Shown: positions 6,207 through 46,271, numbered from the stretch's first letter. The stretch: DNA of 49,570 nt from Candidatus Woesearchaeota archaeon (GCA_964443535.1 CAYUCQ010000003.1:1-49570); one strand, 5' to 3'. Notes: generated by a model from the sequence alone, not told the origin. Made by a program: numbers and translations.

Positions 6207-6217
6207 AAGAAGATAGC

Positions 6218-8440: not shown

Positions 8441-8619
8441 TATAATCGTAATAAAACAGAATAATGGTAATACACTTCTGTTTATCCTTTTTTTCAATAA
8501 ACTAATAATTTAATGGTTTAAAAAGGTTTCTATTTTTTATTTTTAATGAAAAAGCTTTTAAATTTGATAATTTGTTTAGTATATTAGTGGATAGAGGGCA
8601 AATCATTTTAAAGTTAGGC

Positions 8620-9796: not shown

Positions 9797-9806
9797 GTTT
9801 AAATAG
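9797..9806 (+). promoter_or_regulatory. TATA-like box GTTTAAATAG for the giant gene
   Basis: Ends 21 nt before the ATG at 9827. The identical 10-mer with identical spacing precedes the AbrB antitoxin gene at 27751-27760. Confidence 0.45.
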
Positions 9807-9826
9807 CTCTTTTGAGTTGATTGACC

Positions 9827-15800: not shown

Positions 15801-17296
15801 CTATGACGACAAATGAAAATTCTATATGTAGATATTCTACTACAGCGGGAGTTGCTTATCTTTCAATGAGCGGAATATTATCTACAACTAATGGAATTTC
15901 ACATTCTGCAAATATTCCTGGCTTAGTTAATGGAAATAACTACAATTATTATGTCAAATGCAGAGATACAGTAGGCAATACAAATTCCAATGATTTCACA
16001 ATAAGCTTTAGTGTTAGCGCGCCTGTATGCGGAAATGGAATCACAGAAGGAAGCGAAGTTTGTGATGATAGCGCGTTAAACGGACAGCCGAATAGATGCA
16101 ATAGCTCATGCACTGGGATTACAACTGCTGTATGCGGAAATAATGTGCAGGAAACTGGAGAATCATGCGATGGTACAAGCGCACTATTATGCCCTGGATT
16201 GTGCCTGCTTGATTGTAGCTGCGGAGTTGCACTAGCTCCGACTGCGCAGATATTATCTCCATTAAATGGAAATAGCATAACTATTGCAAGCTTTGAAAAT
16301 GTTACAGATGTAAATATTAACTTCAATGTAGTTGGATTTAGCTTGGGCGGTAAGGGACAGAATCATATACATTTCCAGATGAGCGGCGTGCCTTCTTACA
16401 GCTTCAACGACGAGTTCATGTTCTATAATGGAGCAGACAATGTTGTAGAATTTAATTTGATAAGCGGACTAACTATTTATGCGACATGGGTAAATGCCAA
16501 TACGATTAGATTCAACAATATTCCTGTTGGAACTCATACATTGAACGCATATCTTGCTGATACTATCCACGCAGTTTTGAGCAATAGCGAAGCTCAAACA
16601 AATATAACTTTCAATGTTGAGAGAGCTGTGAGCCCTGGCTATTGCGGAGATGCTATATGCAACGCCAGTTTAGGAGAGACATGCAATAGCTGTTCAGTTG
16701 ATTGCGGAAGCTGCCCTCCTGCTCCAACTCCTCCAAGCGGCGGAGGCGGTGGTGGAGGCGGAGGCAGCAGCTCGGGAGTAAGAATAGAGTCTCCAGTAGC
16801 ACAGCCAATTGATGCGCAGAATATCCCTCTAGAATTGAGGAAAGTGCTATTAAGTGATGATGTGCAGTTTGTTGATGTAAATAACGGAGAAAACATAATA
16901 TTGGAAATTCCTGATACAGGAATATCTTACATAGTGTCATTTACGATAAACTCTGAAGGAATTATACTGAATGTGCTGAATGGAGGATATCCTCTTGAGC
17001 AAGAGGCAATAATAGATGTTGCGCTTGATGATAATAATGTTTATCTTGGAGTAACTGAGCAGAGCGAAGGAGAAGCTATAATTGCTCTTGGATTAGATGA
17101 AGAAAAATTCAGAACACAAGTTCAGAGACCAACAGCTAGAACACCCTTTGCTTATGTATTAATGGCAATCATCCTTATTTTAGCAGGAGTGATAATTGTG
17201 CTTATAATATTGTACAGCGCAACTGGAAAAAAGAAAAATCCTGCAAGCAGCTTCAAAGTTTTCGGGCAATCAAAAACGACAAATGTTTTTGCTTAG
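9827..17296 (+). CDS. giant (2489 aa) multi-domain, membrane-anchored surface protein
   Basis: The ORF track starts at TTG 9821; the first ATG is at 9827. Features seen, in order:
- N-terminal TM segment FLFIGFVLLLIVALLF.
- Parallel beta-helix repeats at ~12420-13700 (NNTIYDCSGDGIQL, IEGNKFYN, IRNNEMYN, IEGNLIHDS, LRNSIYN, VYHNTIVN, VRNNLVYQ).
- Purple-acid-phosphatase-type metallophosphoesterase motifs in order at ~13826-14590: GDFG, GDNNY, GNHE, LHHAPY, AHDHLYER.
- Three CGN-x-GE-x-CD cysteine repeats.
- Two DxDxDGY...DC-x-DG-x-INP cysteine motifs at ~14612-14745 and ~15230-15360.
- A poly-Gly run at 16739-16765.
- A C-terminal TM segment (17146-17215) followed by GKKK.
The N-terminal ~800 aa may be polysaccharide-lyase-like (heparinase II/III), but that is weak recall only. 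Confidence 0.8.
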   Translation: MKKKVIGKREKRAFLRRFLFIGFVLLLIVALLFNVSDFIIEKFNYIIALQKARLGIDISKKAVSFSPSPDSPMGRGEHPRLHITQQNIGEIRNVISTQYQSEYQTYINEVILREDDSKYTFGDSDASHNVFRAAATSMAFVGLMNLTQGFSYPAGSNPDQLGRRAALKLISAMQGGQTHNYDTTLTYDWAYGYLTPSERSNLITLAVDGRGIQQNGGDETLRNPSSFPFDAMFSSKYKEGAFAWYVALAYWNDTTNPTEQNYLQQSINTFQGMMLNYGYLDAMNTVGAEGGASEWVGYATWHERTPLMNIDGWSTATGEDYVRTLKGNVSGAYFKNFPVFVWYAADPHKYQGTQYTVIAAGDYGPEDTSITTDFVEKSKWLNFLGKQGEYGSTTEAGLMRQFETRYEVPLGDDINEQIFRFLGHTRSYSAVNPDAVLNKSRWFKHFGSFYARTGFLSSADTVFQVNDPHFLYSARDHGNFPGFMLAKYGELVNIRRNGNHRGTGNLNSYTGAEPNNVVDLDSYERSRPYIQYPSELKSSQTGQGNYDLGGIEQITKKENDFYHVRVNRTKNFNPGTVSNTREFVFLPGSNPLTDSDFLVIYERAKTPSIIPEWIYHTPWEPDAFGYSSSQSLASGSKIGTGYDGSGIIVRELNSKGDTQDGYDGVGDFQAGQGAHGVAFAKTLLPASARVEVSRVAQPDNEVLTEQVGLSHKSIRWQVSVKPQTADTDHKFLHVFQTADANLLPAMSATSLIDTPNMQGGFMQRENPSKPNYVVLFSKNEGVYGGALTYSVDGNGLTKHVITGLKPGTAYQIIDNGAVLATKTTEIDVELWDYKGVAQNVATGTLYFESNLGSSHTFSISETAVAVYVDSNAAVGGDGSFASPFNTIQEGLNVATAGMTVFVRGDISGYGRVYSETPNFVISGTVGNEVTLRNYQNERVVIRTASGIGFDQNNLIIDGLIFDHLNAASDFISWTGDNIVLRNSEIRNGSRDGIEMDGFSNAVIFNNVIHDFVLPASDAHCIITNPNALQPNRGLNLLNNTIYDCSGDGIQLFASSGCCIPDADFSENILIEGNKFYNTNDIIARIGSNLRPENAIDLKEGNGIIIRNNEMYNYPFNKVIVSQKKHQNITIEGNLIHDSDRAVEIRQEGGGSPLDIKILRNSIYNINVTTAGYAIRFDGVTNLEVYHNTIVNSPFGGIEMIGVATTNGIVRNNLVYQSETSSLSGSSVASHNGWFNSPCGDLCNALDTTGTDPLFVSSTDFRLSTSPASPAIDKGLNLGFLFSGLAPDLGAYESGVITPPALCGNSVINSGEECDDGNAIDGDGCSSMCRVFTRFAVIGDFGSAGPNELGVANMIKSWNPDLVLTTGDNNYPAGAQSTIDANIGQYFQEFISPYTGAYGSGSGRGNRFFPSMGNHEWDSAGAAPYLNYFSLPGNERYYDFTFGNVHFFSVDSDSNEPDGTSSSSVQAQWLNNALSSSTSAFNIVYLHHAPYSSGATHGSNAFMQWPFQQWGADIVLSAHDHLYERLSRSGFNYIVNGLGGRSIYTFATPLPESVVRYNADYGAMIVDVNSTTALFRFVNRNNVTIDSYSLPANAAFCTDNDSDGYNLAGTGCGVVDCNDGNAGINPGMTEICGNGIDENCDLIDSVCPVPGCTTSSLTWQNTPLPSQTGLFTVTFNSTPNNANMNGVTGLSLGSASDYTYLATIVRFNETGFIDARNGNAYRANGLIPYNAGTLYSFRLEINVPLRTYSIFVTSGGAEATLGTNYAFRTEQASVSSLNNWALFSAAGTHSVCNLEISAAAVGCTNADNDNYNVSGAGCGVVDCDDGNNAVYPNAPELCDGIDNQCSGNPGFGTVDEGCVQCTFINAYWNQNSIVEGQSATLTAISNSCSSGAVVEISVYEEDGTLVDGTISSTLSANTAVATWAVEYLAGRTGILEYYFIARLASNPSINIDSRTGSGNDWLNVTQADSTAPVRSNGQPSGVLPIGTTSVIISMTTNENSICRYSTTAGVAYLSMSGILSTTNGISHSANIPGLVNGNNYNYYVKCRDTVGNTNSNDFTISFSVSAPVCGNGITEGSEVCDDSALNGQPNRCNSSCTGITTAVCGNNVQETGESCDGTSALLCPGLCLLDCSCGVALAPTAQILSPLNGNSITIASFENVTDVNINFNVVGFSLGGKGQNHIHFQMSGVPSYSFNDEFMFYNGADNVVEFNLISGLTIYATWVNANTIRFNNIPVGTHTLNAYLADTIHAVLSNSEAQTNITFNVERAVSPGYCGDAICNASLGETCNSCSVDCGSCPPAPTPPSGGGGGGGGGSSSGVRIESPVAQPIDAQNIPLELRKVLLSDDVQFVDVNNGENIILEIPDTGISYIVSFTINSEGIILNVLNGGYPLEQEAIIDVALDDNNVYLGVTEQSEGEAIIALGLDEEKFRTQVQRPTARTPFAYVLMAIILILAGVIIVLIILYSATGKKKNPASSFKVFGQSKTTNVFA

Positions 17297-18834: not shown

Positions 18835-20223
18835 CTATCCGCCGATAAACTTTCTCATTGCAGGATGCATGTCAACAGCGTGCTGCTGGGCAATGTCTGT
18901 GTAAAGCTTGTAAACTATCATGACTGCTAATAGAATAGAAGTTCCTGAAGTTAATGCGCCTATAAGGTCTGCAAATGAAGATAATGCACCTATGGCAAGG
19001 CCGCCCATTATTGTTAAAGGCATTATGTATCTTTTTAATATTGATTCTAGGACGCGAGGGTCTTTTCTAAAGCCAGGGATTTGCAAGCCCGATGATAGAA
19101 TATTCTTGGCTTGCGCTGATTCATCCATGCCTGAGGTCTTTACCCAAAATACTGCAAAGAGCGCTGAAAGAGCCATGTAAAATAATACGTGAGTGAGAGA
19201 TTGAAGCAAAAGTATTGAAGAGAAACTTCCTCTTATTATTGACTCTATCAGATTCGTGCTGCCTATCCAGAATGCAAATCCAGAGATTGGCTGGCCTTGC
19301 GAGAAACCGCCGAGAAAAGTCGGCCTGCCCAGCCAATTTTCTAATAAACCGCCAAAGAGCTGAATGTTTGCTGCAAGAGCAGCTACTAAAATAACTGGAA
19401 TTACTGAAGCATAAAAGAATTGCAATGGCCATTTCATGCTATAGCCACGAAGTCTTTCATAGCTTAATGGAATTTCTACTTTAAGATTTTGCGCCCAAAC
19501 AACTAAGAGGAAAATCAATACTGTTGAAACTATTGCTATGACTGCGGAATATAATTCTGTTGGTGCGCCATTCAAGATAGATTGAAGTATCACAAGTATT
19601 CTGCCTCCGCAAGGAGTGCCTGCAAAATCAAGAAGGCATATCTCGCCATTTGTGCCTATAAACTGGAATAGAGAAGTAAATAGTCTCCACGAAACTCCTG
19701 CTACTATGAATAGAGAAACTCCTGAACCAAATCCCCATTTTTGCGAGACTTCATCCATAAGCATTATTGCCAAGCCTCCTAAAACTAGCTGGAAAATAAC
19801 AATTCCTGTAAAGCCTGGCGAAGCTTCTATGCCTCCCATTAAGACATATACTACTGCCTCAAAGACTATGAAGAATAAAACTCCTAATTTTTGCAGTGCC
19901 TGGAACTTTTTCTTGCCCTCTGGAGTTTTTGTATCAATGTTCATGATGCCTGAACCAACTAAAAGCTGCAAGATTATTCCTGCCATGACAATAGGGCCTA
20001 TTCCAAGGCTGATAATGCTTCCAAAATCTGTTCCTAAGATAACCTCTAAGAATTCAAATCTTTCCAGAAAACCTCGGGAAACTCCGTAAAGAGAAATATT
20101 GGCAAGAAGGAAAAAACCAAGCATGATAAAGAGAGTCCATTTTAGCTTCTTATTAAAATCAAGCTTCTTTTCCGCAGGTTTTTGCACCTCTGGAAGATTG
20201 TATACAATTTCTCTTAAAACCAT
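18835..20223 (-). CDS. secY: preprotein translocase subunit SecY
   Basis: About 10 predicted TM segments and SLGIGPIVMAGIILQLL. Follows rpl15. Confidence 0.9.
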   Translation of the reverse strand: MVLREIVYNLPEVQKPAEKKLDFNKKLKWTLFIMLGFFLLANISLYGVSRGFLERFEFLEVILGTDFGSIISLGIGPIVMAGIILQLLVGSGIMNIDTKTPEGKKKFQALQKLGVLFFIVFEAVVYVLMGGIEASPGFTGIVIFQLVLGGLAIMLMDEVSQKWGFGSGVSLFIVAGVSWRLFTSLFQFIGTNGEICLLDFAGTPCGGRILVILQSILNGAPTELYSAVIAIVSTVLIFLLVVWAQNLKVEIPLSYERLRGYSMKWPLQFFYASVIPVILVAALAANIQLFGGLLENWLGRPTFLGGFSQGQPISGFAFWIGSTNLIESIIRGSFSSILLLQSLTHVLFYMALSALFAVFWVKTSGMDESAQAKNILSSGLQIPGFRKDPRVLESILKRYIMPLTIMGGLAIGALSSFADLIGALTSGTSILLAVMIVYKLYTDIAQQHAVDMHPAMRKFIGG

Positions 20224-24233: not shown

Positions 24234-24738
24234 ACTGCGTCTGGAAATTGCTTTCCATAAATTTAATTATTTCTTCCTGCGAAACATTATGCCTTGAAGG
24301 GAGTTTTCCTGATTTTATCTTTTTCAGCTTGACTCGGACGCCTGGGCGTGAAAAAACTATTGTGACATTCAAGCCGCGAATTCCTATGTCTCTTTGATAT
24401 TCAATGCCTGGAATTTCTATGTATTCTTCAATTCCAAAAGAAAAATTATTTATTGATACCTGCTCTTTTCCTAAAATATTTCCAACAGCTGCCAGAAGCC
24501 TTTTTAGCAGCTCTGCTGCAGCTTCATCACGCAAAGTTATTCTTGTTCCTACTTCCAAGCCTGGGCGGACATTAAAATTAGGTATTCTTTTTTTTGAGGC
24601 TATTATCTGAGCTTTTTTTCCAGATATTATTTCCAATAACTTCGTTGCTTTCACCAAATCTTTGTCAGTAGCGCCACAGCTAATTACGACTTTGCTAATG
24701 CTTATTCTTTCCATTGGATTAAGTGTTTGCTGCATCAT
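24226..24738 (-). CDS. rpl5: ribosomal protein uL5
   Basis: NPMERISISKVVISCG...GIEYQRDIGIRGLNVTIV. Confidence 0.9.
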   Translation of the reverse strand: MMQQTLNPMERISISKVVISCGATDKDLVKATKLLEIISGKKAQIIASKKRIPNFNVRPGLEVGTRITLRDEAAAELLKRLLAAVGNILGKEQVSINNFSFGIEEYIEIPGIEYQRDIGIRGLNVTIVFSRPGVRVKLKKIKSGKLPSRHNVSQEEIIKFMESNFQTQFV

Positions 24739-25358
24739 TCTACTATCACCTGACTTTGGTCTAATGAAACTAATTTTTCATTATCTAGAGAAATGCCTAA
24801 ATTTCTTGCGTTTTTTGAATTTATCTTTCCTTTCTGTCCTATATATTTTCCAGAAATTATCATTGCTTCTTTTCCTTTTTCAAGAGCCACGTGCTTCTTT
24901 ATTTTTCCTGCAGAATCAAGATATACAGAATCTCCAACTTGAATATTTTCTTTTGATATTAAATTTGAGCCGTCATGAAAATTTAATTGAATAGAATTTT
25001 TTTTAACCAGTTTTTTATTTATCACCTTGCAGAGCCTTATGCTCTTGTCTTTTGCTTCTTCTAATGTGAACTTTCCTGTTGGAAGCAAAGACAGCTTATA
25101 TGACTTGCCTGCTTCTAGGATATTGAAAAGAGAAACGCTTTCTCTTTGATCTTTAATAACGCGCCCGTTTATTTTCAGCATTTTTTGGATAATCATTTTT
25201 TTTACTTCGCTTGCTGTATGCGCAAGATGAAGCATGTCTCTTACTGCGATAACAACTGGAAGAGAATTGCTGACATTTGACAAAGCCCTTGCTATGTACT
25301 TTGTTCCTTTTCTCGGAATTGGCAACTTTTTCATTGCGCTTTGTCTTTTTACATGCAT
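24735..25358 (-). CDS. rps4e: ribosomal protein eS4
   Basis: MHVKRQSAMKKLPIPRKGTKYIA..., plus a C-terminal KOW-like segment. Confidence 0.9.
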   Translation of the reverse strand: MHVKRQSAMKKLPIPRKGTKYIARALSNVSNSLPVVIAVRDMLHLAHTASEVKKMIIQKMLKINGRVIKDQRESVSLFNILEAGKSYKLSLLPTGKFTLEEAKDKSIRLCKVINKKLVKKNSIQLNFHDGSNLISKENIQVGDSVYLDSAGKIKKHVALEKGKEAMIISGKYIGQKGKINSKNARNLGISLDNEKLVSLDQSQVIVE

Positions 25359-25389
25359 TTTAGTCCTATCAAGTTGAAGGAAAAATGAG

Positions 25390-25403
25390 GCTTATAAATA
25401 TTT
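25390..25403 (-). promoter_or_regulatory. TATA-like box upstream of rps4e (candidate internal promoter)
   Basis: The minus strand reads ATATTTATAAGCC about 33 nt upstream of the rps4e ATG at 25358, just downstream of the inserted islet. Confidence 0.35.
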
Positions 25404-25483
25404 GCTTGAGTTGTTATTTAGAAGAATATATCTTCTTTAGTGCTTTTATTAAATTAGAGGTAGTCGTCCAATAAGCCCTAATT

Positions 25484-25882
25484 TTATCCTAATTTATTCT
25501 CTATTACACTCTTTAGCTTTTGAATTACTTCTTTAAAAGAATTTTCGTTTCTATTGAGATGGGAGTATTCAACAAAAAAACCCTCATAAGCTATCCTATT
25601 TCTTAAAATTCTCAAATCATCTAAAATATATATCTCATTCTGATTAAATTCTCTATGTCTTTCTTTTATATAATCAATTAAATCTTTATGGCTTAAAGTT
25701 TTATATCCATCAAGCAGGAGTATTGCTGTGATAAGCTCTTTTATTATTTCATAATAATCTGAAATAATCAGCGCCGCCATTTTTTCCCTATTTTGCATCT
25801 TAATTCTTTCTTCTATTAAAGAAGTCATCTTAAGTATGCTTTTTGCTTTCTCTTTGTCTTTGCTGATTTTTATAAGCTCCAT
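25484..25882 (-). CDS. HEPN-domain protein (toxin partner of the MNT)
   Basis: 132-aa helical protein 1 nt downstream of the nucleotidyltransferase gene. Has LRILRNRIAYEG where HEPN proteins carry R-x4-6-H; here Tyr replaces the His. Confidence 0.65.
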   Translation of the reverse strand: MELIKISKDKEKAKSILKMTSLIEERIKMQNREKMAALIISDYYEIIKELITAILLLDGYKTLSHKDLIDYIKERHREFNQNEIYILDDLRILRNRIAYEGFFVEYSHLNRNENSFKEVIQKLKSVIENKLG

Positions 25883-25883
25883 T

Positions 25884-26408
25884 TTAAAATATTTTTATAT
25901 ATCCTTTAAGCATAATGCCGTTGAGAATATTATTTTTAAGCTCATTATTAAGCTTATGAAAATTTTCTTCAAAAAATAAAGTTATTCTTCTATTTAATGA
26001 TTTTTCGTATTTTTCAAGGTCCAATCTTTTCTTGGGCGCCTGAACAAAAATATCTATATCGCTCTCTTCAATATCTTCGCCTTTGGATGCCGAGCCAAAC
26101 ATTATTATTGCATCAGGCATGCAATTGTCATAAATATAATCCAATAAACCTTCCTGGTAAATCCTTGAAATTATGTTGAATTTTTTATAGAACCTGAACA
26201 ATTTGTTATCTCTATTAGCTCTAAATGTTGGATATAAGCCATTTTTTTCCTTCAAGATAAATCCTTCAGTTAATAAAGCTTTTAAATGGGCTATTGTAGA
26301 AGGCTGTGATAGTTTAACTGCCCTGGACATTTCCCTCATATGAAAATTCTTTTGAGGAAAATTAAAAAATTCCTGCAAAATTTTATATCTGATATAATTT
26401 TGTAGCAT
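25884..26408 (-). CDS. winged-helix + minimal nucleotidyltransferase (MNT) fusion
   Basis: MFGSASKGEDIEESDIDIFV is the GS-x9-11-D-x-D pol-beta NTase motif. N-terminal wHTH: MSRAVKLSQPSTIAHLKALLTEGFILKE. Confidence 0.8.
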   Translation of the reverse strand: MLQNYIRYKILQEFFNFPQKNFHMREMSRAVKLSQPSTIAHLKALLTEGFILKEKNGLYPTFRANRDNKLFRFYKKFNIISRIYQEGLLDYIYDNCMPDAIIMFGSASKGEDIEESDIDIFVQAPKKRLDLEKYEKSLNRRITLFFEENFHKLNNELKNNILNGIMLKGYIKIF

Positions 26409-26430
26409 ATGCTATTATATTATAGCAAGA

Positions 26431-26442
26431 GGTATTTAAATC
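26431..26442 (-). promoter_or_regulatory. TATA-like box for the MNT-HEPN operon
   Basis: The minus strand reads GATTTAAATACCTCT about 25 nt upstream of the ATG at 26408. It shares the 12-mer TTAAATACCTCT with the 249-aa gene promoter. Confidence 0.4.
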
Positions 26443-26541
26443 TTTCTATACGGCAAGTTATGCAAATTAAGTTTTATTTGAATATATCTTTTTTGTCTTG
26501 CCTTCTCTTGCTTTTCTCCATGCTAAAATCAAATTGCTTAA

Positions 26542-26711
26542 ATTATAGATTTCAGGATAGATATTATTAATTTCCATATTATGAATGTCTTAGGAGCAAG
26601 GGCTATTCCAGACGCGTAACCGTTCCTGTTATCATCATGGTAGCTGCCATTGAAGTTAAGCCTGTTGTCGTTCCAGTTCCTGTCGTCAAGCGCGCCAATT
26701 ATGTAGCCAAT
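26542..26711 (-). pseudogene. decayed fragment homologous to the 3' end of the 249-aa gene
   Basis: 26608-26700 aligns gap-free (~75% by eye) with 26923-27015. The fragment reads IGALDDRNWNDNRLNFNGSYHDDNRNGYASG versus ISALGDRVWYGYGLDFGGSYRVVGRYGCASG. It is bounded by an in-frame stop at 26712-26714 and has no start codon. Confidence 0.6.
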
Positions 26712-26882
26712 TTACCAATTGGGCTTTTCAGCTTCACTGAAATTCCTCGCAAGGAATTTCTGTATTTCATGGCTTTAAAATAAATAAAATAATGCCTTAG
26801 TAAATTGGCGTGTAGCCCTAGCTCATAGGCATTGCCTCACTAAGACAAAATATAATAGAATATAGAATTAATAAATTATTGC

Positions 26883-26908
26883 AAAAAATTTTGCGAGTGC
26901 TTCGCACT
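26883..26908 (-). terminator. hairpin plus U6 after the 249-aa gene
   Basis: The minus strand reads AGUGC-GAA-GCACU, then CGCAAAA, then UUUUUU, starting at the stop codon. Confidence 0.35.
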
Positions 26909-27656
26909 AAACTACGACTACCCCAGACGCGCAACCGTACCTGCCAACAACACGGTAGCTGCCACCGAAGTCAAGCCCGTAGCCGTACCAGACCCTGTCG
27001 CCAAGCGCGGATATTGTTTGAATAGGCTTATTATCAGTATTTACAATCCAAGAACGAGGCTCTTTAATTGGAAAATATTTTGATTGGGAAACTTCTGCCA
27101 AATTTCTTGCGCCATTTTCTTCACAACTTGCGATTATAAATCCGTCATTTGCAAATTCTTCTGCAGTCATTTCTCCATCTTTATATGACTTTCTTGGAGC
27201 AAAGCTGACTTTTCCATCTTCACTAAATCTTACTCCATTTTCTAATCTTCTTCCGCCTTTTAATGCTTTTTCTAATTCTCCTATGTCTAATTCTTTAGAT
27301 ATTCCAACGCCTTTTTCATCATAAACAACGAAAACACCGTGGCTTGATTCATATTCTTCTGGAACCCATAAGTTTCTTTGGAAAATCCAAAGATATTTTT
27401 GCTTCATTATTTCATCTCTTAATTCAACAGCTTCTGGCTCTTTTTGAAAATCTTCTGGACCACAATAAACTGCTTTAAGTAAATATGATGTTTTCTCTCC
27501 GTTTGGAAGAGACATTCTTACAGGATGATTTAATATCTCTTTCGCAGCACCTTTGTAATTATTAGGTCTTATGAAAGGATGGACAAATGCTATATTTTCG
27601 CCTACATCAATTTCTGTGACTTGTTTTTTAATAGTCGGAATATATTGATTTTTCAT
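26907..27656 (-). CDS. hypothetical protein (orphan, 249 aa)
   Basis: ORF track with its own TATA-like box. No motif I recognise. The last ~35 codons are markedly more GC-rich than the rest. Confidence 0.6.
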   Translation of the reverse strand: MKNQYIPTIKKQVTEIDVGENIAFVHPFIRPNNYKGAAKEILNHPVRMSLPNGEKTSYLLKAVYCGPEDFQKEPEAVELRDEIMKQKYLWIFQRNLWVPEEYESSHGVFVVYDEKGVGISKELDIGELEKALKGGRRLENGVRFSEDGKVSFAPRKSYKDGEMTAEEFANDGFIIASCEENGARNLAEVSQSKYFPIKEPRSWIVNTDNKPIQTISALGDRVWYGYGLDFGGSYRVVGRYGCASGVVVV

Positions 27657-27675
27657 GATTTTATTAAAGAGGAGA

Positions 27676-27687
27676 GGTATTTAAGCT
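27676..27687 (-). promoter_or_regulatory. TATA-like box for the 249-aa gene
   Basis: The minus strand reads GCTTAAATACCTCT about 22 nt upstream of the ATG at 27656. Confidence 0.4.
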
Positions 27688-27727
27688 TTTCTATTTGTTA
27701 CTATTATATAGTTATTTTATCTCTATA

Positions 27728-27770
27728 TTCCTACATGAGTGTAGGAAAAAGTTTAAATAGTTTGTAGGAA
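27728..27770 (+). promoter_or_regulatory. candidate operator/promoter of the AbrB-PIN operon
   Basis: Inverted repeat TTCCTACA-tgag-TGTAGGAA at 27728-27747. TATA-like GTTTAAATAG at 27751-27760. A third half-site TGTAGGAA at 27763-27770. ATG at 27781. Confidence 0.5.
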
Positions 27771-27780
27771 TTGATATATT

Positions 27781-28035
27781 ATGATAATAAGAAGGCAATT
27801 GGGAGTGAAAGGACAGGTAGTTATACCTAAGGATATTCGGAAAATTCTCGGCTTGGAAACAGGAGAAGAGGTAGTTTTTGAAGTTGTAAATGATGAAGTT
27901 AGGATAAAAAGAGAGGAAGATGTTAACAAAATTGTTGATGACTTTTTCGATGTGCCTGGAAAGAAGAAAAAACAAAGTTCAATAAAAGAAATAAAAAAGA
28001 TTATTTATGAACAATATGATGAAGAAATACCTTGA
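27781..28035 (+). CDS. vapB: AbrB/SpoVT-family antitoxin
   Basis: GVKGQVVIPKDIRKILGLETGEEVVFEV is the swapped-hairpin AbrB motif. Overlaps the PIN gene. Confidence 0.8.
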   Translation: MIIRRQLGVKGQVVIPKDIRKILGLETGEEVVFEVVNDEVRIKREEDVNKIVDDFFDVPGKKKKQSSIKEIKKIIYEQYDEEIP

Positions 28036-28426
28036 CTCTAATGTTTTCCTTTATCCTTTACTATACGAAGATGATAAAGCAAGGGCTGCAAAAGAAATAG
28101 TGCGTGATTTTGTAAGCAAGAAATTTTTGGCTTATACTTCTGTACTTACTTGGGATGAATTTGTTTATATATTAAAAAGAGAGAGAGGAAAGGAGATAGC
28201 TGAAGCAGAAAGTGATAAATTTCTGAAACTTCCTAATCTTTTATTTTTAGATATTAAAAAATCCTTATTATTTAAAGCACAAGAATTAATAAAAAATTAT
28301 AATTTAAAACCAAGGGATGCGATTCATGCTGCGAGCGCTATTGTGAATGATATAAATGAAATTATTTCAGATGAAGAAGATTTTGACAAAATAAAAGAAA
28401 TTAAAAGAATAGGGCTGTCTATTTAG
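28007..28426 (+). CDS. vapC: PIN-domain toxin (VapC-type)
   Basis: YLDSNVFLYPL, TSVLTWDEF, PRDAIHAASAI and a C-terminal SDEEDFDKI motif. The 3' end overlaps the rpl24 3' end by 8 nt. Confidence 0.8.
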   Translation: MNNMMKKYLDSNVFLYPLLYEDDKARAAKEIVRDFVSKKFLAYTSVLTWDEFVYILKRERGKEIAEAESDKFLKLPNLLFLDIKKSLLFKAQELIKNYNLKPRDAIHAASAIVNDINEIISDEEDFDKIKEIKRIGLSI

Positions 28427-28841
28427 CTTCTTTAGGAGCAGTTTTTTCTTTGCCTCTGTTAACTGCCGTGAGTCTATGCTTGTCTTCTAAATTCAATGAT
28501 TGGATTTGAAGCTTGCTTGGATGGAAATAAACATTCACTTTTGAGCCGTCTTTTTTTGTCCTGTAAATGTTTTCCAGAATCACGCGGTTTCTTTTTAAAT
28601 TTACAGAAGTTACTTTTGCTTTTTTCTTCTTGAAAGCGCCCCTCATTACAAGAACTTCATCGCCTTTTCTTATTGGAAGAGAGTTCTTCTTGTGCTTTTC
28701 CTTTAGAGGTTTTGATAAAGGAGAGCCAAGGAATTTGTGCTTTGTGTGCAATGGAGCGTTTGCTATGTATTTTCTTTGCTTCCTTGGAAGCTTGCTTGAA
28801 AGCCAGTGCGTGGAGAATTTATTTTTCATGTTATAGTACAA
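28419..28841 (-). CDS. rpl24: ribosomal protein uL24
   Basis: PRKQRKYIANAPLH...IRKGDEVLVMRGAFKKKKAKVTSV (KOW). The Met at 28829 is an alternative start. Confidence 0.9.
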   Translation of the reverse strand: MYYNMKNKFSTHWLSSKLPRKQRKYIANAPLHTKHKFLGSPLSKPLKEKHKKNSLPIRKGDEVLVMRGAFKKKKAKVTSVNLKRNRVILENIYRTKKDGSKVNVYFHPSKLQIQSLNLEDKHRLTAVNRGKEKTAPKEAK

Positions 28842-29565: not shown

Positions 29566-29865
29566 TTAATCGCTTATGGAGTCTGCAGAAAAGCCTAAGC
29601 TTATCAGGACAGGCTTTACCTGTCTTTTGTGTTCTCCTTGAAGTTCTATGACACCATTCTTGATGGTGCCACCACAGGCAAGCTTTTCCTTTAGCGCCTT
29701 TGCGATTGCCTTTATGTCCAAGCGCTTGCTTAGGCCGCTAACCAGAGTTATGATTTTGCCATAACGTCTCTTGTCTATTGATACCTTGATGTGCTGCTCC
29801 TTCTTTGCGATTTCTTCAAACACATCTGATTCGGTAGGTAAACCGAAATTGGGATCTATGTCCAT
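29566..29865 (-). CDS. sui1: translation initiation factor SUI1/aIF1
   Basis: IKVSIDKRRYGKIITLVSGL...LKEKLACGGTIKNGVIELQGEHKRQVKPVLISLGF. Confidence 0.85.
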   Translation of the reverse strand: MDIDPNFGLPTESDVFEEIAKKEQHIKVSIDKRRYGKIITLVSGLSKRLDIKAIAKALKEKLACGGTIKNGVIELQGEHKRQVKPVLISLGFSADSISD

Positions 29866-31805: not shown

Positions 31806-32087
31806 TTAAATCTGCTCTCCTAATTCTTTTAGTATTTCTATTAATTTTGGCACTGAAAAAAACCTTAAATCTAGAGGAAAGAGAACTCCTTGTTCATTAA
31901 CTTGATAATCTCCTATAACCATATATTTTCTTTTAACTATTGTTAAAACATCTCTAGCAAAGAAATGACTATCTTCTCTTTCACCTAAGTATTGCATTTC
32001 TGCATCATTTCCTATACTTCTCATTCTGTAGGTTTCTCCTTGGATTAATTTTGGCCTTCTCTCCATTATTTCTATTCCTTCTGTCAT
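31806..32087 (-). CDS. hypothetical 93-aa protein embedded between rpl2 and rps19
   Basis: ORF track. Its ATG shares one base with the rpl2 TAA (TAATG), and its stop lies 1 nt before the rps19 ATG. No recognisable motif. Confidence 0.6.
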   Translation of the reverse strand: MTEGIEIMERRPKLIQGETYRMRSIGNDAEMQYLGEREDSHFFARDVLTIVKRKYMVIGDYQVNEQGVLFPLDLRFFSVPKLIEILKELGEQI

Positions 32088-32783: not shown

Positions 32784-33026
32784 TTATATCATTCCCAGCT
32801 TAGTTGCAACATCAATTGCAGGATTTTTTTTATTTAATTTGACGTAAGCATATTTCTTGTTTCCCATTATGTGCGTCCTGACTTTTTCCACTTTAACAGA
32901 GAATAGCTTTTCAGTCTCTTGTTTTATATCTTCCTTTCTAAACTTTCTTTCTGTTTCAAATATCAAAGTATTGTCTATCTCTATCATCTTTACTGCTTTT
33001 TCTGATGTTATTGGCTTGAGTATCAT
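32784..33026 (-). CDS. rpl23: ribosomal protein uL23
   Basis: ILKPITSEKAVKMIEIDNTLIFETERKFRKEDIKQETEKLFSVKVEKV. Confidence 0.9.
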   Translation of the reverse strand: MILKPITSEKAVKMIEIDNTLIFETERKFRKEDIKQETEKLFSVKVEKVRTHIMGNKKYAYVKLNKKNPAIDVATKLGMI

Positions 33027-33643
33027 TTTGCTAAATATGCTGGAACTTTAAATTGTGAATATTCTGGGAATAATGGCTTTCCATGAACGAGGCGAGAAAA
33101 ACATTCTGCAGTTAATTTGCAATCTTCCAAAGCATTGTGTTTTTTTCTATTATCTTTCATGCCGCAGAACTCCAATATATTTGACAATCCCATATCGCTG
33201 TGGTCATCTTTTATAAGGAATTTTCCATGAATTTCTTTATATTTTTCTTGTGCATATGTATGCAAGTCAAAAGATCTATGATGAAATGGAATTTTGCCTA
33301 ATCCATATTTACCTGCTTTTATATTAATTATTCCTAAATCAAATGCTGGATTTTGACAGATGCAATTTTTTATTGCCTTTAAATTTTTAACATAATTAAA
33401 GAAATTTTGAATTAATTTCTTTTGTGATTGCTTTCTTTTATCACGGAAATCTTCGTCTTTTAATCCTGTAATCTCGTATACTGTATGTTTATCGCCAGGA
33501 ATATTAACAATCTGGTCTTCATTATCTATTCTTGCTTCTTCTAAGAAAGTATTTTGAGGATTCTCAAATTCTAAAGCTCCTATTTGCCAAATTCCTGATT
33601 TATAAAAATCTGTTCCCCTTGTTTCAATGTCTAAAACTATCAT
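33023..33643 (-). CDS. DEDDh-type 3'-5' exonuclease (DnaQ/RNase T-like) embedded between rpl4 and rpl23
   Basis: ExoI VLDIETRG, ExoII NPAFDLGII, ExoIII KHNALEDCKLTAECFSRL (H-x4-D). ATGA-type 4-nt overlaps at both ends. Confidence 0.75.
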   Translation of the reverse strand: MIVLDIETRGTDFYKSGIWQIGALEFENPQNTFLEEARIDNEDQIVNIPGDKHTVYEITGLKDEDFRDKRKQSQKKLIQNFFNYVKNLKAIKNCICQNPAFDLGIINIKAGKYGLGKIPFHHRSFDLHTYAQEKYKEIHGKFLIKDDHSDMGLSNILEFCGMKDNRKKHNALEDCKLTAECFSRLVHGKPLFPEYSQFKVPAYLAK

Positions 33644-34413
33644 TTCAATTCTCCCAATGCTTTTTGAGTGTAAACTGCTAATCTGCCAAGAGGATATAAA
33701 TCTTTTATGTTCAGTTCGTTTGTTTTTCTGACATCAATTCCCTTGACTTTCATATTTTCGTCTTTTGCTATGACAAGCAAAAGACCTGCGTTTGACTTGT
33801 ATTTCCTGCCTCTTGATTTCCCTTTTCCTGCTCTTACTGATTTATTCTTCAATAACAATTCAAAATTTTCCTTGAAAATTAATTTTATTGCATTGAAAAA
33901 ATCTTTTGTTTTTATCTTGTCTAATTTTGATTCCAAGATTACTGGAAGTTTTACATGCAGCTTGTTCAAAGTTGAATATCTTTTTATTATTGAAGATTCG
34001 TGGGCAGTAGATGCCAATGCAGAATGCATTGCCATGAGCATTTCTTTCTTATTGATTTTCTTTATCTGGCTGTTTAGTTTTGGCGGATGAGCTCTTCTTC
34101 CTCCTCTTACGCTTGCAACTTCAGCTCCGACCCAGAAGAACTGCGTTCCCCTGCGCCACATTGTTTTTCTTGGAATTCTTGATATTCCTTTTCCATAATG
34201 CCCTTTCCAGTCATGTCTTTTGTGGGAAATTTTTCCTGAAGCAGCATGCCTTTTTCCAGCTTCTTTGTATGGAGCATATGGATGAATGCTGTTCAGTCTT
34301 TCTGCTTCATAATATTTCTGAACAATATCTTCTCTAATATTTGAATTAAATATTTCTGGAATTTCTATTTCTCCTGCTTCTTCTCCCTTGATATTGTATA
34401 ATTTTGCTTTCAT
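33640..34413 (-). CDS. rpl4: ribosomal protein uL4
   Basis: PYKEAGKRHAASGKISHKRHDWKGHYGKGISRIPR...VRGGRRAHPPK. Confidence 0.9.
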   Translation of the reverse strand: MKAKLYNIKGEEAGEIEIPEIFNSNIREDIVQKYYEAERLNSIHPYAPYKEAGKRHAASGKISHKRHDWKGHYGKGISRIPRKTMWRRGTQFFWVGAEVASVRGGRRAHPPKLNSQIKKINKKEMLMAMHSALASTAHESSIIKRYSTLNKLHVKLPVILESKLDKIKTKDFFNAIKLIFKENFELLLKNKSVRAGKGKSRGRKYKSNAGLLLVIAKDENMKVKGIDVRKTNELNIKDLYPLGRLAVYTQKALGELK

Positions 34414-35363
34414 TTTGTTATCAGCTCCATGAATTCATATTTCTTTTTTGCTTGATATCTAGTTGGCCTGAAAGGAGAAGTGAGCAATATTTGTCTTTTT
34501 GGAGGGCCTTGAATAGAACCTTTGATTATCATGTAAGAAGTTTTTATTTTTCCGTAATGCTTGAAACCAGAACTTGGATTGATGTTTTTTTCGCTGATGT
34601 TTCCTGAAGCGACAATTAAATTGTTATATTGCAGTCTTGTGAAGAAGCCTAACTGCCCCATCATTGGTGTTCTAAATGTAACGTGAGCAGGATGCCATGG
34701 ACCAAGGCTTCCTGGGCGCCTTATTCCTTTTTCTGATTTGTGCTGCTTTAGTGTAATTCCAAATCTTTTTACAGGACCTTGAGTTCCTTTGCCTGTTGTG
34801 ACTGCTCTTGCGTCTAAAATATTTGATTTTAGTAAACTAGATAGAGACATCTCCTTATTTATCAGTGATTTTACAAACTCTAGCTTGTTTTTTGCATTTA
34901 TTCCTAATTCTGCCAAATCAGGCGTCTTTTTTATAGAAGTCTGCTTTGGAATTGAATAAACTATAATTCTCAAATCGTCGTAACTTGGGGGAACTTTATC
35001 AAGAGTTGAAAGCTGTTTTGGAACTTTCAGCTTTTTCTTTAATTCTTTGTCATTTGAAACTATCAAGTCCTTTATTACCTTGCCGTCCTTGTAAAATCTT
35101 ACTGAGAAAATCTTCATGCTTGGAATTTCAAGTATAGTAACTGGAATTGTTATTTTCTTTCCTAATGTCATTGATTTGTCAGTAGAATCCTTTACAACTG
35201 CTGTTGCCATTCCGACTTTATATGCTATAAATCCTAAAATGCCGTCAGAATCAGAAGTTATTCTTTTAAGAGGCTCCCAGTTTACACTAGGCAGGAGCTT
35301 AGATGCTCTCTTTCTCGGATAAAACTGCAAGCTTCCAAATCTTGGACGTGATATTTTTGACAT
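34410..35363 (-). CDS. rpl3: ribosomal protein uL3
   Basis: RPRFGSLQFYPRKRA...VTTGKGTQGPVKRFG...PGSLGPWHPAHV. First gene of the cluster. Confidence 0.9.
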   Translation of the reverse strand: MSKISRPRFGSLQFYPRKRASKLLPSVNWEPLKRITSDSDGILGFIAYKVGMATAVVKDSTDKSMTLGKKITIPVTILEIPSMKIFSVRFYKDGKVIKDLIVSNDKELKKKLKVPKQLSTLDKVPPSYDDLRIIVYSIPKQTSIKKTPDLAELGINAKNKLEFVKSLINKEMSLSSLLKSNILDARAVTTGKGTQGPVKRFGITLKQHKSEKGIRRPGSLGPWHPAHVTFRTPMMGQLGFFTRLQYNNLIVASGNISEKNINPSSGFKHYGKIKTSYMIIKGSIQGPPKRQILLTSPFRPTRYQAKKKYEFMELITK

Positions 35364-35551: not shown

Positions 35552-36157
35552 ATGGAAAAAGAAATTAAGATAACTAAAAAGCAATTAATGAAAATTGCAG
35601 ATTATAAATCAAAGCCTCTTCCGAAGTATAGCTCGTCTATAATAAATTTGTTAAATAGATGGGCTAAAGGAACAGCGTCAAAAGTTGTTGGGCAAATGTC
35701 TGATTTAATACAAGAATGCCCCTATAAAGATTATGAAAAGTGGAGAGAATGGTATCTTAAAAAATACCCTAATTCTTTGGATAATGCTATAAAATTGATT
35801 ATGTCTAAACTAAAAGAAGTCGCTAAGACATTTGAAAATATTGATGAAAACATAGTTAGAACTTGGGTAGAGGATTTAGTAATTGATAAGAGTTTTTGGG
35901 GTTTGAAGATACAAGAGGCGATTATAGCAAGATTAAAAGAGATAACTAATAAAAAATGTAGATTGGCTACGAAAGAGGAAGAGAATAAAGGCATTGATGG
36001 TTTTATTGAAGATTTACCAATTCAAATAAAACCCTCTTCTTATAAAATTGCTTCAAATGTAAAAACTGAGAAACTTAGAGCCAAAACCGTTTATTATGAA
36101 AAGGATGAAAACGGAGATTATATCATAAATTTAAACGAAATCTCAAATTTGTTTTAA
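35552..36157 (+). CDS. putative type II restriction endonuclease
   Basis: 201-aa ORF convergent with the methyltransferase and overlapping it by 15 nt. GIDGFIEDLPIQIKP fits a D...(E/Q)xK nuclease core. The family is not identified with certainty. Confidence 0.5.
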   Translation: MEKEIKITKKQLMKIADYKSKPLPKYSSSIINLLNRWAKGTASKVVGQMSDLIQECPYKDYEKWREWYLKKYPNSLDNAIKLIMSKLKEVAKTFENIDENIVRTWVEDLVIDKSFWGLKIQEAIIARLKEITNKKCRLATKEEENKGIDGFIEDLPIQIKPSSYKIASNVKTEKLRAKTVYYEKDENGDYIINLNEISNLF

Positions 36158-37195
36158 TAAGCTATAATCTATTTCAAATAGATTTTCTTCTATTTGCTTT
36201 ATTTCTTTTAATTCGGGTATTGATATTTTTATTTCTTGTAAAGTAACAACTGGAAAACTATAATTTTTATTTAGATATTTATGTTCCCCTTTTAATTCTG
36301 CTCTTTCCTTCATAAATTCGCTATGTCTTTTTAATCTATCTTTGATACGCTCATTTGCTATCTCTTTAAAATTTTTTATTCTTACTTCTATAATCTCTTT
36401 AAAATTGGCATCTATTTCGTAGCCGATGCTATTTCTTCCAGAAGCAATAGCTCCCAGTATTGTTGTTCCTGTTCCTAGAAATGGGTCTAAAATAGTATCG
36501 TCTTGTACAGAAAACATATTCACCAGCCTATAAGCTAATTCTATAGGATACGCTGCGCTTCTTTCCCTGATCTTAGTGTAGTTTAATTTCTGAAAGACTC
36601 CATTAATGTCTTTCCATTTATCAGAAAACCAGATGTTTCTTTCTTCCCAAAAGAAAGCACTTCTCTGCCTATTTAATTTTTCTTCAGGTTTATTAAATTC
36701 TCTTTTATCTCCTTTTCTTAAAATTAAAATATGCTCATGTTCTAAAGTTACATAGGCTCCAACAGGCAACATACCAGAACCCATAAACTTATCTGGTTTG
36801 TTAGTTTCTTTTATCCAAAGAATATGGGGCAACGCATGAAAGCCAAGACTTAAACAATAGTTTAATATTCTTGCATGATTAGTATAAATTCTAAATTTTC
36901 CATTTAAACTTCTTGTAGCATCGCCAATATTTATACAAGCAATGCCTCCAACTTTTAAAACTCTATAAACCTCTTTCCAAACTTTGTCCATCTCTTTATG
37001 CATTAGTTCAAAAGCTTTTTCTCCATTAAACTCCTTTAGCGCATGATTTATATCTAAGTTCTGTAAAGAAAACATTTCATCCCACATTTCAATCATGGGA
37101 TAAGGTGGAGAAGTGATCATTAAATTTACACTTTCAGCTTTAATCTCTTTCATCTCTCTTGCATCACTATAAAATATTTTATGTTCTGTTTTCAT
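36143..37195 (-). CDS. DNA methyltransferase, beta-class (likely N4-cytosine)
   Basis: Motif IV ITSPPYP lies near the N-terminus and motif I DPFLGTGTT near the C-terminus. The order IV...I indicates the beta class. SPPY is typical of m4C enzymes. Confidence 0.8.
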   Translation of the reverse strand: MKTEHKIFYSDAREMKEIKAESVNLMITSPPYPMIEMWDEMFSLQNLDINHALKEFNGEKAFELMHKEMDKVWKEVYRVLKVGGIACINIGDATRSLNGKFRIYTNHARILNYCLSLGFHALPHILWIKETNKPDKFMGSGMLPVGAYVTLEHEHILILRKGDKREFNKPEEKLNRQRSAFFWEERNIWFSDKWKDINGVFQKLNYTKIRERSAAYPIELAYRLVNMFSVQDDTILDPFLGTGTTILGAIASGRNSIGYEIDANFKEIIEVRIKNFKEIANERIKDRLKRHSEFMKERAELKGEHKYLNKNYSFPVVTLQEIKISIPELKEIKQIEENLFEIDYSLLKQI

Positions 37196-43765: not shown

Positions 43766-44269
43766 TTATTTTTTCTTTGATTTACCTTTTTTCTTGGCTT
43801 CTTTCTTTGGAACTTTTGTTTCTACTTGAGCTTGGGCATCTGGCTGCTTGAAAAGATGGGGTGCAACTTCATAGAGCTTTTTTGTGATTATCTCTTTTTC
43901 AACAAGAGCTTTCTTTGTTATTGCATCATAATCATGCAGTCTTTGGATTAACCTGTTTCCTAATTCATTTAAATCTATATTTCCCATTGCTATCTTCTCT
44001 GGATGAATTATTTCTATATGCGCAGGCATATAGGCGAATAAGACGCCGAAATAATCATTTAGCGATTCTAATTCTAGAGCTAGTTCGGTAAATGAAGTGA
44101 ATAAGTCTTTTGAGCTTTCAACAGGTATTGGCTCGTGATTAGTTTTCTCAAGAATTTTTACTCCTTTTTCAGCGCCTAGCTTATTAATTAATAAATTTAG
44201 CGCTTCGCTTACATGCTCTTTGGGACGCCCAAGAATTTCCAGAACCATGTTTGCCTGCATGCTTACCAT
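43766..44269 (-). CDS. hypothetical protein with Lys-rich C-terminal tail
   Basis: ORF track only. No motif recognised. Confidence 0.45.
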   Translation of the reverse strand: MVSMQANMVLEILGRPKEHVSEALNLLINKLGAEKGVKILEKTNHEPIPVESSKDLFTSFTELALELESLNDYFGVLFAYMPAHIEIIHPEKIAMGNIDLNELGNRLIQRLHDYDAITKKALVEKEIITKKLYEVAPHLFKQPDAQAQVETKVPKKEAKKKGKSKKK

Positions 44270-44313
44270 AGAATTTTATAATATTATTGCTTTTAAATAT
44301 TGTGTCAAGATTG

Positions 44314-46180: not shown

Positions 46181-46271
46181 CTATGTTTTCTGCAATTAAG
46201 CTTATTATATTTTTCTGCTAGAAGCGAATAATTTATATAATACAATGGGATAAAAAGCTTGAAAGAAAAAA

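Follow-up and report, generated by a model that had tools for sequence, protein, structure and literature searches.

A probable diversity-generating retroelement cassette with a truncated reverse transcriptase gene at the rpl24/rps4e junction of an archaeal ribosomal superoperon

Results

A stretch of 49,570 nt from a Candidatus Woesearchaeota archaeon (GCA_964443535.1, CAYUCQ010000003.1:1-49570), referred to here as the window, was analyzed. It carries a minus-strand ribosomal superoperon running from rpl3 (34410-35363) to secY (18835-20223), as established from the open reading frame (ORF) map and domain scans. The junctions between rpl3 and secY are overlaps or gaps of at most 40 nt (the widest measure 40, 39, and 37 nt), except that between rpl24 and rps4e, which is opened by 3060 nt (25359-28418; the rps4e start lies at 25358 and the rpl24 stop at 28419). 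A first-pass annotation of this DNA had described junctions shorter than 45 nt and a 3.06-kb opening at this point, and both were borne out. The gap contains five genes. Those for a HEPN-like protein, a winged helix-turn-helix (wHTH) MNT nucleotidyltransferase, and a 249-aa protein lie on the minus strand, and those for an AbrB-type and a PIN-domain protein on the plus strand (Table 1). Both pairs, wHTH-MNT with HEPN and AbrB with PIN, had been listed in the first-pass annotation and are real by domain and fold. That annotation read the locus as a toxin-antitoxin (TA) islet containing an orphan gene with a decayed copy of its own 3' end. We report here that the islet is very probably a DPANN-type diversity-generating retroelement (DGR) cassette at rpl24/rps4e that was later invaded by two TA-like modules. 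In a working DGR, the cDNA that a reverse transcriptase (RT) makes from a template RNA, with misincorporation opposite the adenines of the template, takes the place of a variable region (VR).

Table 1. Coordinates of the predicted features at the rpl24/rps4e junction (positions counted from the first letter of the window).
Feature	Position	Strand	Basis or remark
rpl24 (uL24)	28419-28841	-	Pfam Ribosomal_L26, 5e-23; flank upstream of the insertion
VapBC-like AbrB + PIN pair	27781-28426	+	Inserted block ~27718-28464
PIN-domain toxin	28007-28426	+	Pfam PIN, E 1.7e-20, 74.2 bits
AbrB/MazE-type antitoxin	27781-28035	+	Pfam MazE_antitoxin, E 4e-9, 36.7 bits
Probable DGR variable-protein gene, 249 aa, predicted AvpA-like C-type-lectin fold	26907-27656	-	VR and template repeat, homologue context, fold
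Variable region (VR), 3' end of variable-protein gene	26918-27009	-	92-nt ungapped match to the template repeat
GC-rich hairpin GTGC-GAA-GCAC	26897-26907	-	Begins at last base of stop codon; T-run after
TTTATTAA box, candidate TATA box for template RNA	26868-26875	-	Invariant in 9 of 9 aligned loci
RT-16 RNA (Rfam RF03019), putative structured 5' domain of DGR template RNA	26698-26845	-	Covariance model
Template repeat (TR)	26603-26694	-	29 adenines, 7 AAY codons
Post-TR segment UAGCCCUUGCUCCUAAGAC	26587-26605	-	Complementary to RT-16 5' segments 26846-26840 and 26824-26813
Stub of DGR RT gene, 36 codons plus stop	26467-26577	-	RT homology ends at 26482
Mobile wHTH-MNT + HEPN module	25479-26449	-	Homology limits against the L046 and L047 copies
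wHTH-MNT, 174 aa	25884-26408	-	Pfam Polbeta/NTP_transf_2; PADLOC PDC-M05A, E 1.5e-13
HEPN-like protein, 132 aa	25484-25882	-	PADLOC PDC-M05B, E 3.9e-5; AlphaFold 2 and Foldseek fold
Conserved 36-nt block with TTTATAAG, candidate promoter for rps4e and distal operon half	25372-25407	-	Cross-genome comparison
rps4e (eS4)	24735-25358	-	Pfam Ribosomal_S4e, 3e-15; flank downstream of the insertion

The 3' end of the 249-aa gene was aligned with its downstream copy on the coding strand. The two match without a gap over 92 nt with 19 mismatches, and all 19 fall where the downstream copy has an adenine (A>G at 13 positions and A>T at 6). None of the 63 non-adenine positions differs, and the probability that 19 of 19 mismatches would fall on adenines by chance is about 3e-10. 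Because all differences sit at adenines of one copy, the repeat pair carries the defining signature of a DGR, with the end of the 249-aa gene as VR and the downstream copy as the template repeat (TR). A decayed duplication, as proposed in the first-pass annotation, was ruled out, since random decay does not produce such a pattern. The VR was evidently copied, with adenine-specific mutagenesis, from the TR of the window or from an identical one. The same adenine-biased pattern was found in nine related loci, in which TR lies about 290-600 nt downstream of VR. Read in frame, the TR of the window is dominated by AAY codons and has 22 variable codons in all, and substitution of its adenines never yields a stop codon; about 10^15.8 protein variants can be encoded through it. 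VR ends 8 nt before the stop codon; TR follows downstream after another 223 nt and is not part of any long ORF. A scan of the window revealed no second VR, second TR, or variable-protein paralogue. The fixed VR/TR substitutions in the window and in loci L001-L030 were strongly biased at every locus: A>G was the commonest in most loci, followed by A>T, while A>C occurred 0-1 times per locus. This bias could reflect misincorporation by the RT or selection for binding sites rich in Gly, Val, and Tyr.

The 249-aa protein had no match in Pfam, NCBIfam, or PADLOC. It has 24 close homologues, and a profile search of 1.84 billion representative proteins (E <=1e-3) returned 723 clusters at 50% identity, nearly all of 230-260 aa. 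The homologues are labeled Pacearchaeota where the source gives a name. In the first two genomes examined, the homologue lies about 300 nt upstream of an RVT_1 reverse transcriptase gene. An alignment of 23 homologues showed a conserved scaffold, with the last ~30 residues hypervariable. The AlphaFold 2 (AF2) model built on this alignment had a predicted local distance difference test score (pLDDT) of 81.8 and a predicted TM-score (pTM) of 0.84. A fold search of this protein had been suggested in the first-pass annotation, and Foldseek gave AvpA, a Nanoarchaeota DGR variable protein with a C-type-lectin fold, as the only significant PDB match (5ioo_A, E 2.3e-4, prob 1.0); no match was found among viral predicted structures. 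The motifs GVFVVY and A(S/F)GV of the family resemble the GxxVVVY and RFxGV motifs described for AvpA (PMC5006420). The gene and its 3' copy are thus present as first described, but the gene is not an orphan and the copy, with its adenine-only differences, is not decayed. Instead of an uncharacterized defence or addiction component, the VR/TR pair, the AvpA fold match, and the RT-16 RNA and RT stub described below point to a DGR variable protein.

The RT-16 RNA was matched over model positions 1-158 of 158 with a score of 70.8 bits (gathering score 50, E 3e-10), and it ends 4 nt ahead of TR in the window. RT-16 was found in 11 of 11 related loci scanned, immediately 5' of TR wherever a TR was identified. 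Copies beside full-length RTs scored 57.6-75.4 bits. The TTTATTAA box lies ~30 nt upstream of the RT-16 5' end, which is consistent with a dedicated promoter for the template RNA. Among the RT motifs, only RT-10 has been tied to a DGR, the assignment of the others being speculative (PMC5737381), and no paper linking RT-16 to DGRs was found in our literature search. We infer that an RNA consisting of RT-16 and TR is the DGR template.

Other candidate signals surround the repeats. The GC-rich hairpin after VR shows compensating stem changes across loci (GTGGC/GCCAC, GCGCC/GGCGC, and TCCC/GGGA) and is a candidate homing-target hairpin and/or terminator. It overlaps an alternative 5-bp stem, TGCGA/TCGCA (26906-26892), which is also followed by a T-run and was listed as terminator-like; that entry came from the hairpin list of a sigma-70 promoter scan, and sigma-70 promoters are inapplicable to an archaeon. 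A conserved GC(G/T)TCTGG element closes the VR/TR repeat and is a candidate homing signal resembling the IMH (initiation of mutagenic homing) element. The minimum free energy fold of 26850-26570 was unusually stable (z -3.95) and contained a long-range helix that joins RT-16 to the post-TR segment. Across nine distinct loci, 94% of cells pair in this helix and five pairs change on both sides. Its covariation score was reached by 0 of 500 shuffles, and slid controls paired at 27-54%. The nine-locus alignment was assembled by hand around the proposed helix, which is treated as a lead. The helix competes with the P1 hairpin of the Rfam model. Complementarity between RT-16 and the post-TR segment, with compensating changes, was seen at the same places in 10 related loci. 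These results suggest a candidate helix that would close the RNA around TR. RT stubs of similar length occur in the window and in L010, and we considered whether the stub is kept as a part of the template RNA. This was rejected, as the RT start codon lies 10 nt past the end of the covarying closing helix.

The RT stub is placed where relatives have the RT start codon and reads MEINNIYPEIYNLSNLILAWRKAREGKTKKIYSNKT, followed by a stop codon. The tblastn match in the window covered only residues 1-32 of the L001 RT (26577-26482, 62.5% identity, E 2e-8), and the blastn breakpoint fell at 26482/26483. The window thus holds an incomplete, RT-less DGR cassette. In the three closest DGRs, L001 (9073-10106), L002 (9077-10101), and L003 (3251-4311), the RT gene is full-length and split by a -1 frame change. 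The break falls within an (AG)n tract immediately ahead of the GMPLGNLTSQ motif, with (AG)7 in L001, (AG)5(CG)3 in L002, and (AG)7 in L003, and the two frames would become one if a single AG unit were lost. In these three loci, strong purifying selection acts on both halves of the RT, with ratios of nonsynonymous to synonymous substitution rates (dN/dS) of 0.08-0.26. More distant RTs (L028-L030) have a single frame and no (AG)n tract. Programmed frameshifting, repeat-length phase variation, and a two-part RT are possible explanations of the break. Elsewhere the RT gene is damaged: L013 has an internal deletion, and L010 retains a 44-codon stub. In L012, a marginal RT-16 (6830-6974, 51.2 bits) is kept and the TR is lost. 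The variable protein P0015, from an RT-less cassette (L006-L009), is sequence-identical on 23 contigs, against 14 by cluster count, and at least four of these contigs come from different assemblies. This identity suggests a frozen VR, and P0015 and L012 look like stages of cassette decay.

The same cassette lies at rpl24/rps4e in L001/L015, with the full-length, frame-broken RT, and in L013/L017, with the internally deleted RT. Among 21 variable-protein loci in species-representative genomes, two are located between rpl24 and rps4e, and both belong to the closest relatives of the window. In all 11 more distant metagenome loci (rps4e identity 54-68%), rpl24 is directly beside rps4e; the gap, measured in seven of them, ranges from a 32-nt overlap to 1 nt. 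The synteny comparison proposed in the first-pass annotation thus confirmed that inserted DNA splits a junction that is closed in 11 relatives. Since the insert is confined to a narrow clade and the junction is closed in these relatives, the insertion is derived. The insert-bearing clade consists of the window and two metagenome-assembled genomes labeled Woesearchaeota, and the variable-protein homologues elsewhere are labeled Pacearchaeota.

By blastn, window positions 27717-26483 aligned at ~80% with L001 7941-9167. Included in this match are the promoter, the variable-protein gene, the spacer, RT-16, and TR, together with the opening ~95 nt of the RT gene. No further homology is met before 25407-25372; between the two blocks, L001 has the remainder of the RT and the window has the MNT and HEPN genes. 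The left end of the cassette homology falls at 27713-27717 against four different genomic contexts, and this constant end indicates that the cassette behaves as a discrete unit. Window positions 42545-47995 are syntenic with L010, in which a second cassette and an AAA ATPase gene occupy 5467-9428. This second cassette comprises a variable protein, RT-16, TR, and the 44-codon RT stub, and it separates a tRNA_edit-domain gene from an SNase-like gene. In the window, the corresponding genes (tRNA_edit, 45707-46180; SNase-like, 44969-45706; both minus strand) abut at 45706/45707. From this comparison, cassettes appear to be gained or lost between close relatives.

Homology between the window and L001 resumes on the rps4e side at the 36-nt block, within which TTTATAAG (25398-25391, minus strand) ends 33 nt before the rps4e ATG, the position given in the first-pass annotation. 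The block was found with at most two mismatches in L001 and L013 (97% identity to L001) and not in the 11 relatives without an insert, so that it is confined to the three insert-bearing genomes. These results support a newly acquired internal promoter for rps4e, and with it the earlier proposal that the distal half of the operon gained a promoter of its own. Given a new promoter, the translationally coupled rpl24/rps4e junction would then tolerate an insert of 3 kb. Transcription is predicted to start at about 25365-25370 for rps4e and about 26846 for the RT-16/TR RNA; the predicted starts for the variable protein (27656), MNT (26408), and AbrB (27781) are leaderless.

The wHTH-MNT and HEPN-like genes match the PADLOC candidate system PDC-M05. 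The nucleotidyltransferase motif GSASKGEDIEESDIDIF (GS...DxD) is present in the MNT protein; its N-terminal HTH match is sub-threshold, and its NCBIfam MntA score is under the cut-off (25.5 bits against 60). The HEPN assignment is weak by sequence but clear by fold: the AF2 model has a pLDDT of 96, its top Foldseek match is the HEPN protein AF_0298 (2hsb, TM 0.69), and the next matches are HEPN toxins of MNT-HEPN pairs. A phmmer search of the HEPN-like protein against the PDB gave nothing useful. The catalytic Rx4-6H motif is not found in this protein, which reads R94-N-R-I-A-Y99 without a His, and the Tyr at the His position is invariant in 32 homologues. RNase activity of this protein is uncertain because of this Tyr. 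At least 575 homologues were found, with 65-92% identity among the matches listed; these are closer than the rps4e of the window is to that of any relative (70% at best).

The same pair of 174-aa and 132-aa genes, one base apart, occurs in unrelated contexts in L046 and L047. Homology to these copies covers 26449-25479 and includes a TATA box (26439-26433) and the palindrome TGCTATAATATAATAGCA at the MNT start codon. The palindrome is conserved as TGCTA-N8-TAGCA, overlaps the start codon, and could serve the wHTH domain as an operator. Both limits of the block fall within the stretch where the RT is missing, and the GC content of the block is 28-30%, compared with ~36% in the flanks. Because it recurs in unrelated contexts, has its limits within the RT gap, and is low in GC, the block is a discrete mobile module, belonging to a very large and highly conserved DPANN family. 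We infer from these limits that it replaced RT codons ~33 to the end.

The AbrB and PIN genes overlap by 29 nt in the two-gene VapBC layout, and the acidic residues of the PIN domain, read by eye, are at the expected positions (D10, E51, D103, and D122). Window positions 28464-27718 have no counterpart in L001, in which the cassette starts within ~6 nt of rpl24. A MazE-PIN pair lies at the left edge of the cassette in L002. Arrival of the VapBC-like pair together with the cassette from an L002-like context was rejected, the two pairs not being orthologous.

The relation of these TA-like modules to the cassette can be read in two other ways. The first is that of the first-pass annotation, in which a TA or defence islet is parked in an essential operon, the 249-aa protein is a component of it, and the repeat is a decaying duplication. 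Two TA-like pairs are indeed present, one of them matches PDC-M05, and TA modules also flank cassettes in L002 and L006. However, the 249-aa gene, the repeat, and the RT stub together make a textbook DGR, adenine-only differences are not a product of random decay, and in L001 and L013 the cassette occupies the same junction with no TA pair. We regard this reading as scarcely credible. Whether the content of the gap is conserved in the lineage, a point on which that annotation had staked its reading, has a divided answer: the variable protein and TR are found at the same junction in L001 and L013, but the TA pairs are missing there. The core of the islet is thus the DGR cassette rather than an addiction or defence system, and the TA pairs are variable additions.

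In the second reading, the TA modules are no chance neighbors but functional partners that might, for instance, stabilize the DGR cassette or regulate it through the wHTH domain of MNT. The cassette has TA-like pairs as immediate neighbors in the window (two pairs), in L002 (MazE-PIN), and in L006 (UPF0175-DUF3368). In addition, the window has exactly two copies of the 12-mer TTAAATACCTCT, on the minus strand at 26428-26439 and 27673-27684. They precede the start codons of the MNT and 249-aa genes by ~20-30 nt, and the first-pass annotation had noted the 12-mer as shared by these two promoters. With up to one mismatch there are four sites against 0.74 expected, and the other two precede a 2491-aa ORF (9799-9810) and rpl3. 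The 12-mer appears to be a local promoter consensus. As a specific link between MNT and the variable protein it was rejected, since it also precedes these unrelated genes and is missing from MNT modules elsewhere. The two exact sites at the MNT and 249-aa promoters are thus real, but the specific connection is not. Furthermore, the flanking TA pairs come from different, non-orthologous families, none is found beside the cassette in L001, L003, or L013, MNT-HEPN occurs in many non-DGR contexts where its promoter lacks the 12-mer, and in the window this module destroyed the RT. A functional partnership is thus improbable. These results favor a DGR cassette with two later TA-like additions.

Discussion

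The element is of a known kind, a degenerate DPANN DGR, at an unusual, lineage-conserved site. DGRs are abundant and diverse in DPANN archaea, and AvpA-like proteins are their typical targets (PMC5758913, PMC5006420, PMC8144416). The cassette resembles the AvpA-type DGRs of DPANN/Nanoarchaeota (Handa et al. 2016, PMC5006420, PDB 5IOO; Paul et al. 2015, as cited in PMC5758913) in its ~250-aa single-domain protein with a predicted C-type-lectin fold, its short VR rich in AAY-templated codons, a TR between the target gene and the RT, and an ultra-small archaeal host; no Avd-like gene is seen in either. It differs in that VR is at the very C-terminus with the hairpin outside the ORF, whereas AvpA has 46 residues after VR. 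The protein also lacks profile-detectable sequence similarity to AvpA, the RT is a stub, and the cassette lies inside a ribosomal superoperon.

The DGR of Bordetella phage BPP-1 (mtd-avd-TR-brt) shares the adenine-specific transfer from TR to VR, a VR at the 3' end of a gene for a protein with a C-type-lectin fold (predicted in the window), a GC-rich element and hairpin after VR, which in the window are candidate homing signals, and a structured RNA adjoining TR. The cassette of the window lacks avd and RT, is chromosomal rather than phage-borne, and has RT-16 5' of TR, whereas the Sp/RT-10 region is 3' of TR (PMC5737381). RT-16 itself (RF03019; Weinberg et al. 2017, PMC5737381) was matched over its full length and is beside an RT gene in relatives, as originally described. 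Unlike in that description, it abuts the 5' end of TR here, and its 5' part is complementary to a segment 3' of TR. An Rfam motif that had been an orphan would thereby acquire a concrete function, that of 5' domain in the template RNAs of DPANN DGRs. Like the remote targets of trans-acting DGRs (Treponema denticola; PMC5758913), the variable-protein gene has no adjacent RT, and the sister genomes have one full-length RT and several variable-protein genes. In contrast to those targets, the unit in the window keeps its own TR and RT-16 and not VR alone, and trans service is putative.

The two TA-like modules also have known counterparts. The MNT-HEPN pair is similar to MntA-HepT type VII systems in having a nucleotidyltransferase with GSx10DxD beside a HEPN-fold protein; it differs in the N-terminal wHTH of MNT and in the Tyr that replaces the His of Rx4-6H. 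The AbrB-PIN pair resembles VapBC type II systems in that an AbrB-fold antitoxin gene overlaps a PIN-domain gene; the toxicity of both pairs is putative. In the literature searched, we did not find descriptions of a lineage-conserved DGR site inside a ribosomal superoperon, of RT replacement by an MNT-HEPN module, of consistent RT-16 placement at the TR 5' end, or of a -1 frame break conserved among the L001, L002, and L003 RT genes. One unusual DGR target that has an S3 ribosomal domain has been noted (PMC5758913).

We propose the following history. The 249-aa gene would encode an AvpA-like C-type-lectin-fold variable protein. Its C-terminal 92 nt, the VR, have been rewritten by mutagenic retrohoming from the TR, which would be transcribed within a structured RNA of RT-16 and TR. 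The cassette would have entered the rpl24/rps4e junction in the ancestor of a narrow clade, and a new promoter block would then have taken over rps4e and the distal half of the operon. Later, the AbrB-PIN pair would have landed between rpl24 and the variable-protein promoter, and the mobile wHTH-MNT/HEPN module would have replaced most of the RT gene. The local RT is destroyed, and the locus presumably can no longer mutagenize itself.

Several points weigh against this proposal. The AvpA match is modest (TM 0.42-0.48), with a root-mean-square deviation of 9.6, and the VR part of the AF2 model is of low confidence (pLDDT <50 for residues 234-249). A family-profile search of PDB sequences gave nothing significant and did not recover 5ioo. 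A single ancestral insertion rests on the shared site and the shared promoter block, not on phylogeny. No Avd-like or HRDC-type accessory gene was found, and no ORF lies between the target gene and the RT; an accessory ORF is also missing at this place in L001, L002, and L003, and its absence appears to be family-wide, so that it distinguishes these cassettes from the Bordetella type instead of indicating decay. By tblastn, there is no RT beyond the stub in the 49.6-kb window, the rest of the genome not being visible. Present activity of the cassette and ongoing VR variation in the population are putative.

The last two points bear on the present state of the locus. The cassette may be a dead relic, with no other DGR RT in the genome, a fixed variable protein, and a TR and RT-16 awaiting decay, and we give this somewhat less than an even chance. 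Besides the missing RT, the second-cassette site of a sister genome is empty in the window, loss or damage recurs in relatives (the stub in L010, the internal deletion in L013, and the TR loss in L012), and an RT-less relative has the invariant protein P0015. However, TR and VR show no non-adenine difference, RT-16 scores like the copies beside full-length RTs, and the TATA box and the 36-codon stub frame are intact. Such a clean state suggests either a very recent loss or continued constraint. Each sister genome also retains one full-length RT, elsewhere or at rpl24/rps4e.

We lean slightly toward the view that an RT at another place in the genome still serves the cassette in trans. In both sister genomes, one full-length RT is found alongside RT-less or RT-dead cassettes, and over the 87-90 nt that align with their VRs, L002 and L013 have identical TRs. 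The TR, RT-16, TATA box, VR hairpin, and stub reading frame of the window are all undamaged, and remote DGR targets have been documented (PMC5758913). Trans service is plausible because of this pairing in sister genomes, the intact template parts, and the known remote targets. A more speculative extension, which we consider rather unlikely as a whole, is that the variable-protein gene and its RT-16/TR RNA form a self-contained satellite, copied to new sites, the ribosomal superoperon among them, and remaining functional with no RT of its own by using a single RT elsewhere. The RT frame break might then be an on/off or low-level switch, the TA insertion would have removed only a redundant RT, and the TR would be offered to the RT within an RNA closed by the long-range helix.

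With this analysis, the annotation of an orphan gene within a TA islet gives way to a mechanism that is specific and can be tested. On this reading, a tiny symbiotic archaeon has a hypermutable ligand-binding protein encoded in its most conserved operon. The locus may also provide a natural example of DGR breakdown, in which a mobile MNT-HEPN module disabled the RT and left the template RNA intact. The related loci additionally suggest a long-range helix enclosing TR and reveal a conserved RT frame break.

Additional Observations in the Window

Other non-ribosomal genes interrupt the superoperon. A DEDD/RNase_T-type exonuclease gene lies between rpl4 and rpl23 (33023-33643, minus strand) and is also present in L001 and L013. 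A 93-aa ORF without a family match lies between rpl2 and rps19 (31806-32087, minus strand), and a SUI1 gene between rpl29 and rps17 (29566-29865, minus strand). Small unannotated ORFs were seen at further operon junctions in relatives. Directly upstream of rpl3 are genes for a MjaI-type restriction endonuclease (35552-36157, plus strand) and an N6/N4 DNA methylase (36143-37195, minus strand), an apparent type II restriction-modification pair. The 2491-aa ORF (9821-17296, plus strand) has beta-helix, metallophosphatase, and MopE-type metal-binding motifs. A further PIN-domain gene adjoins rps2 (1758-2189, plus strand; Pfam E 7.5e-8), and TA-type genes seem common in this small genome.

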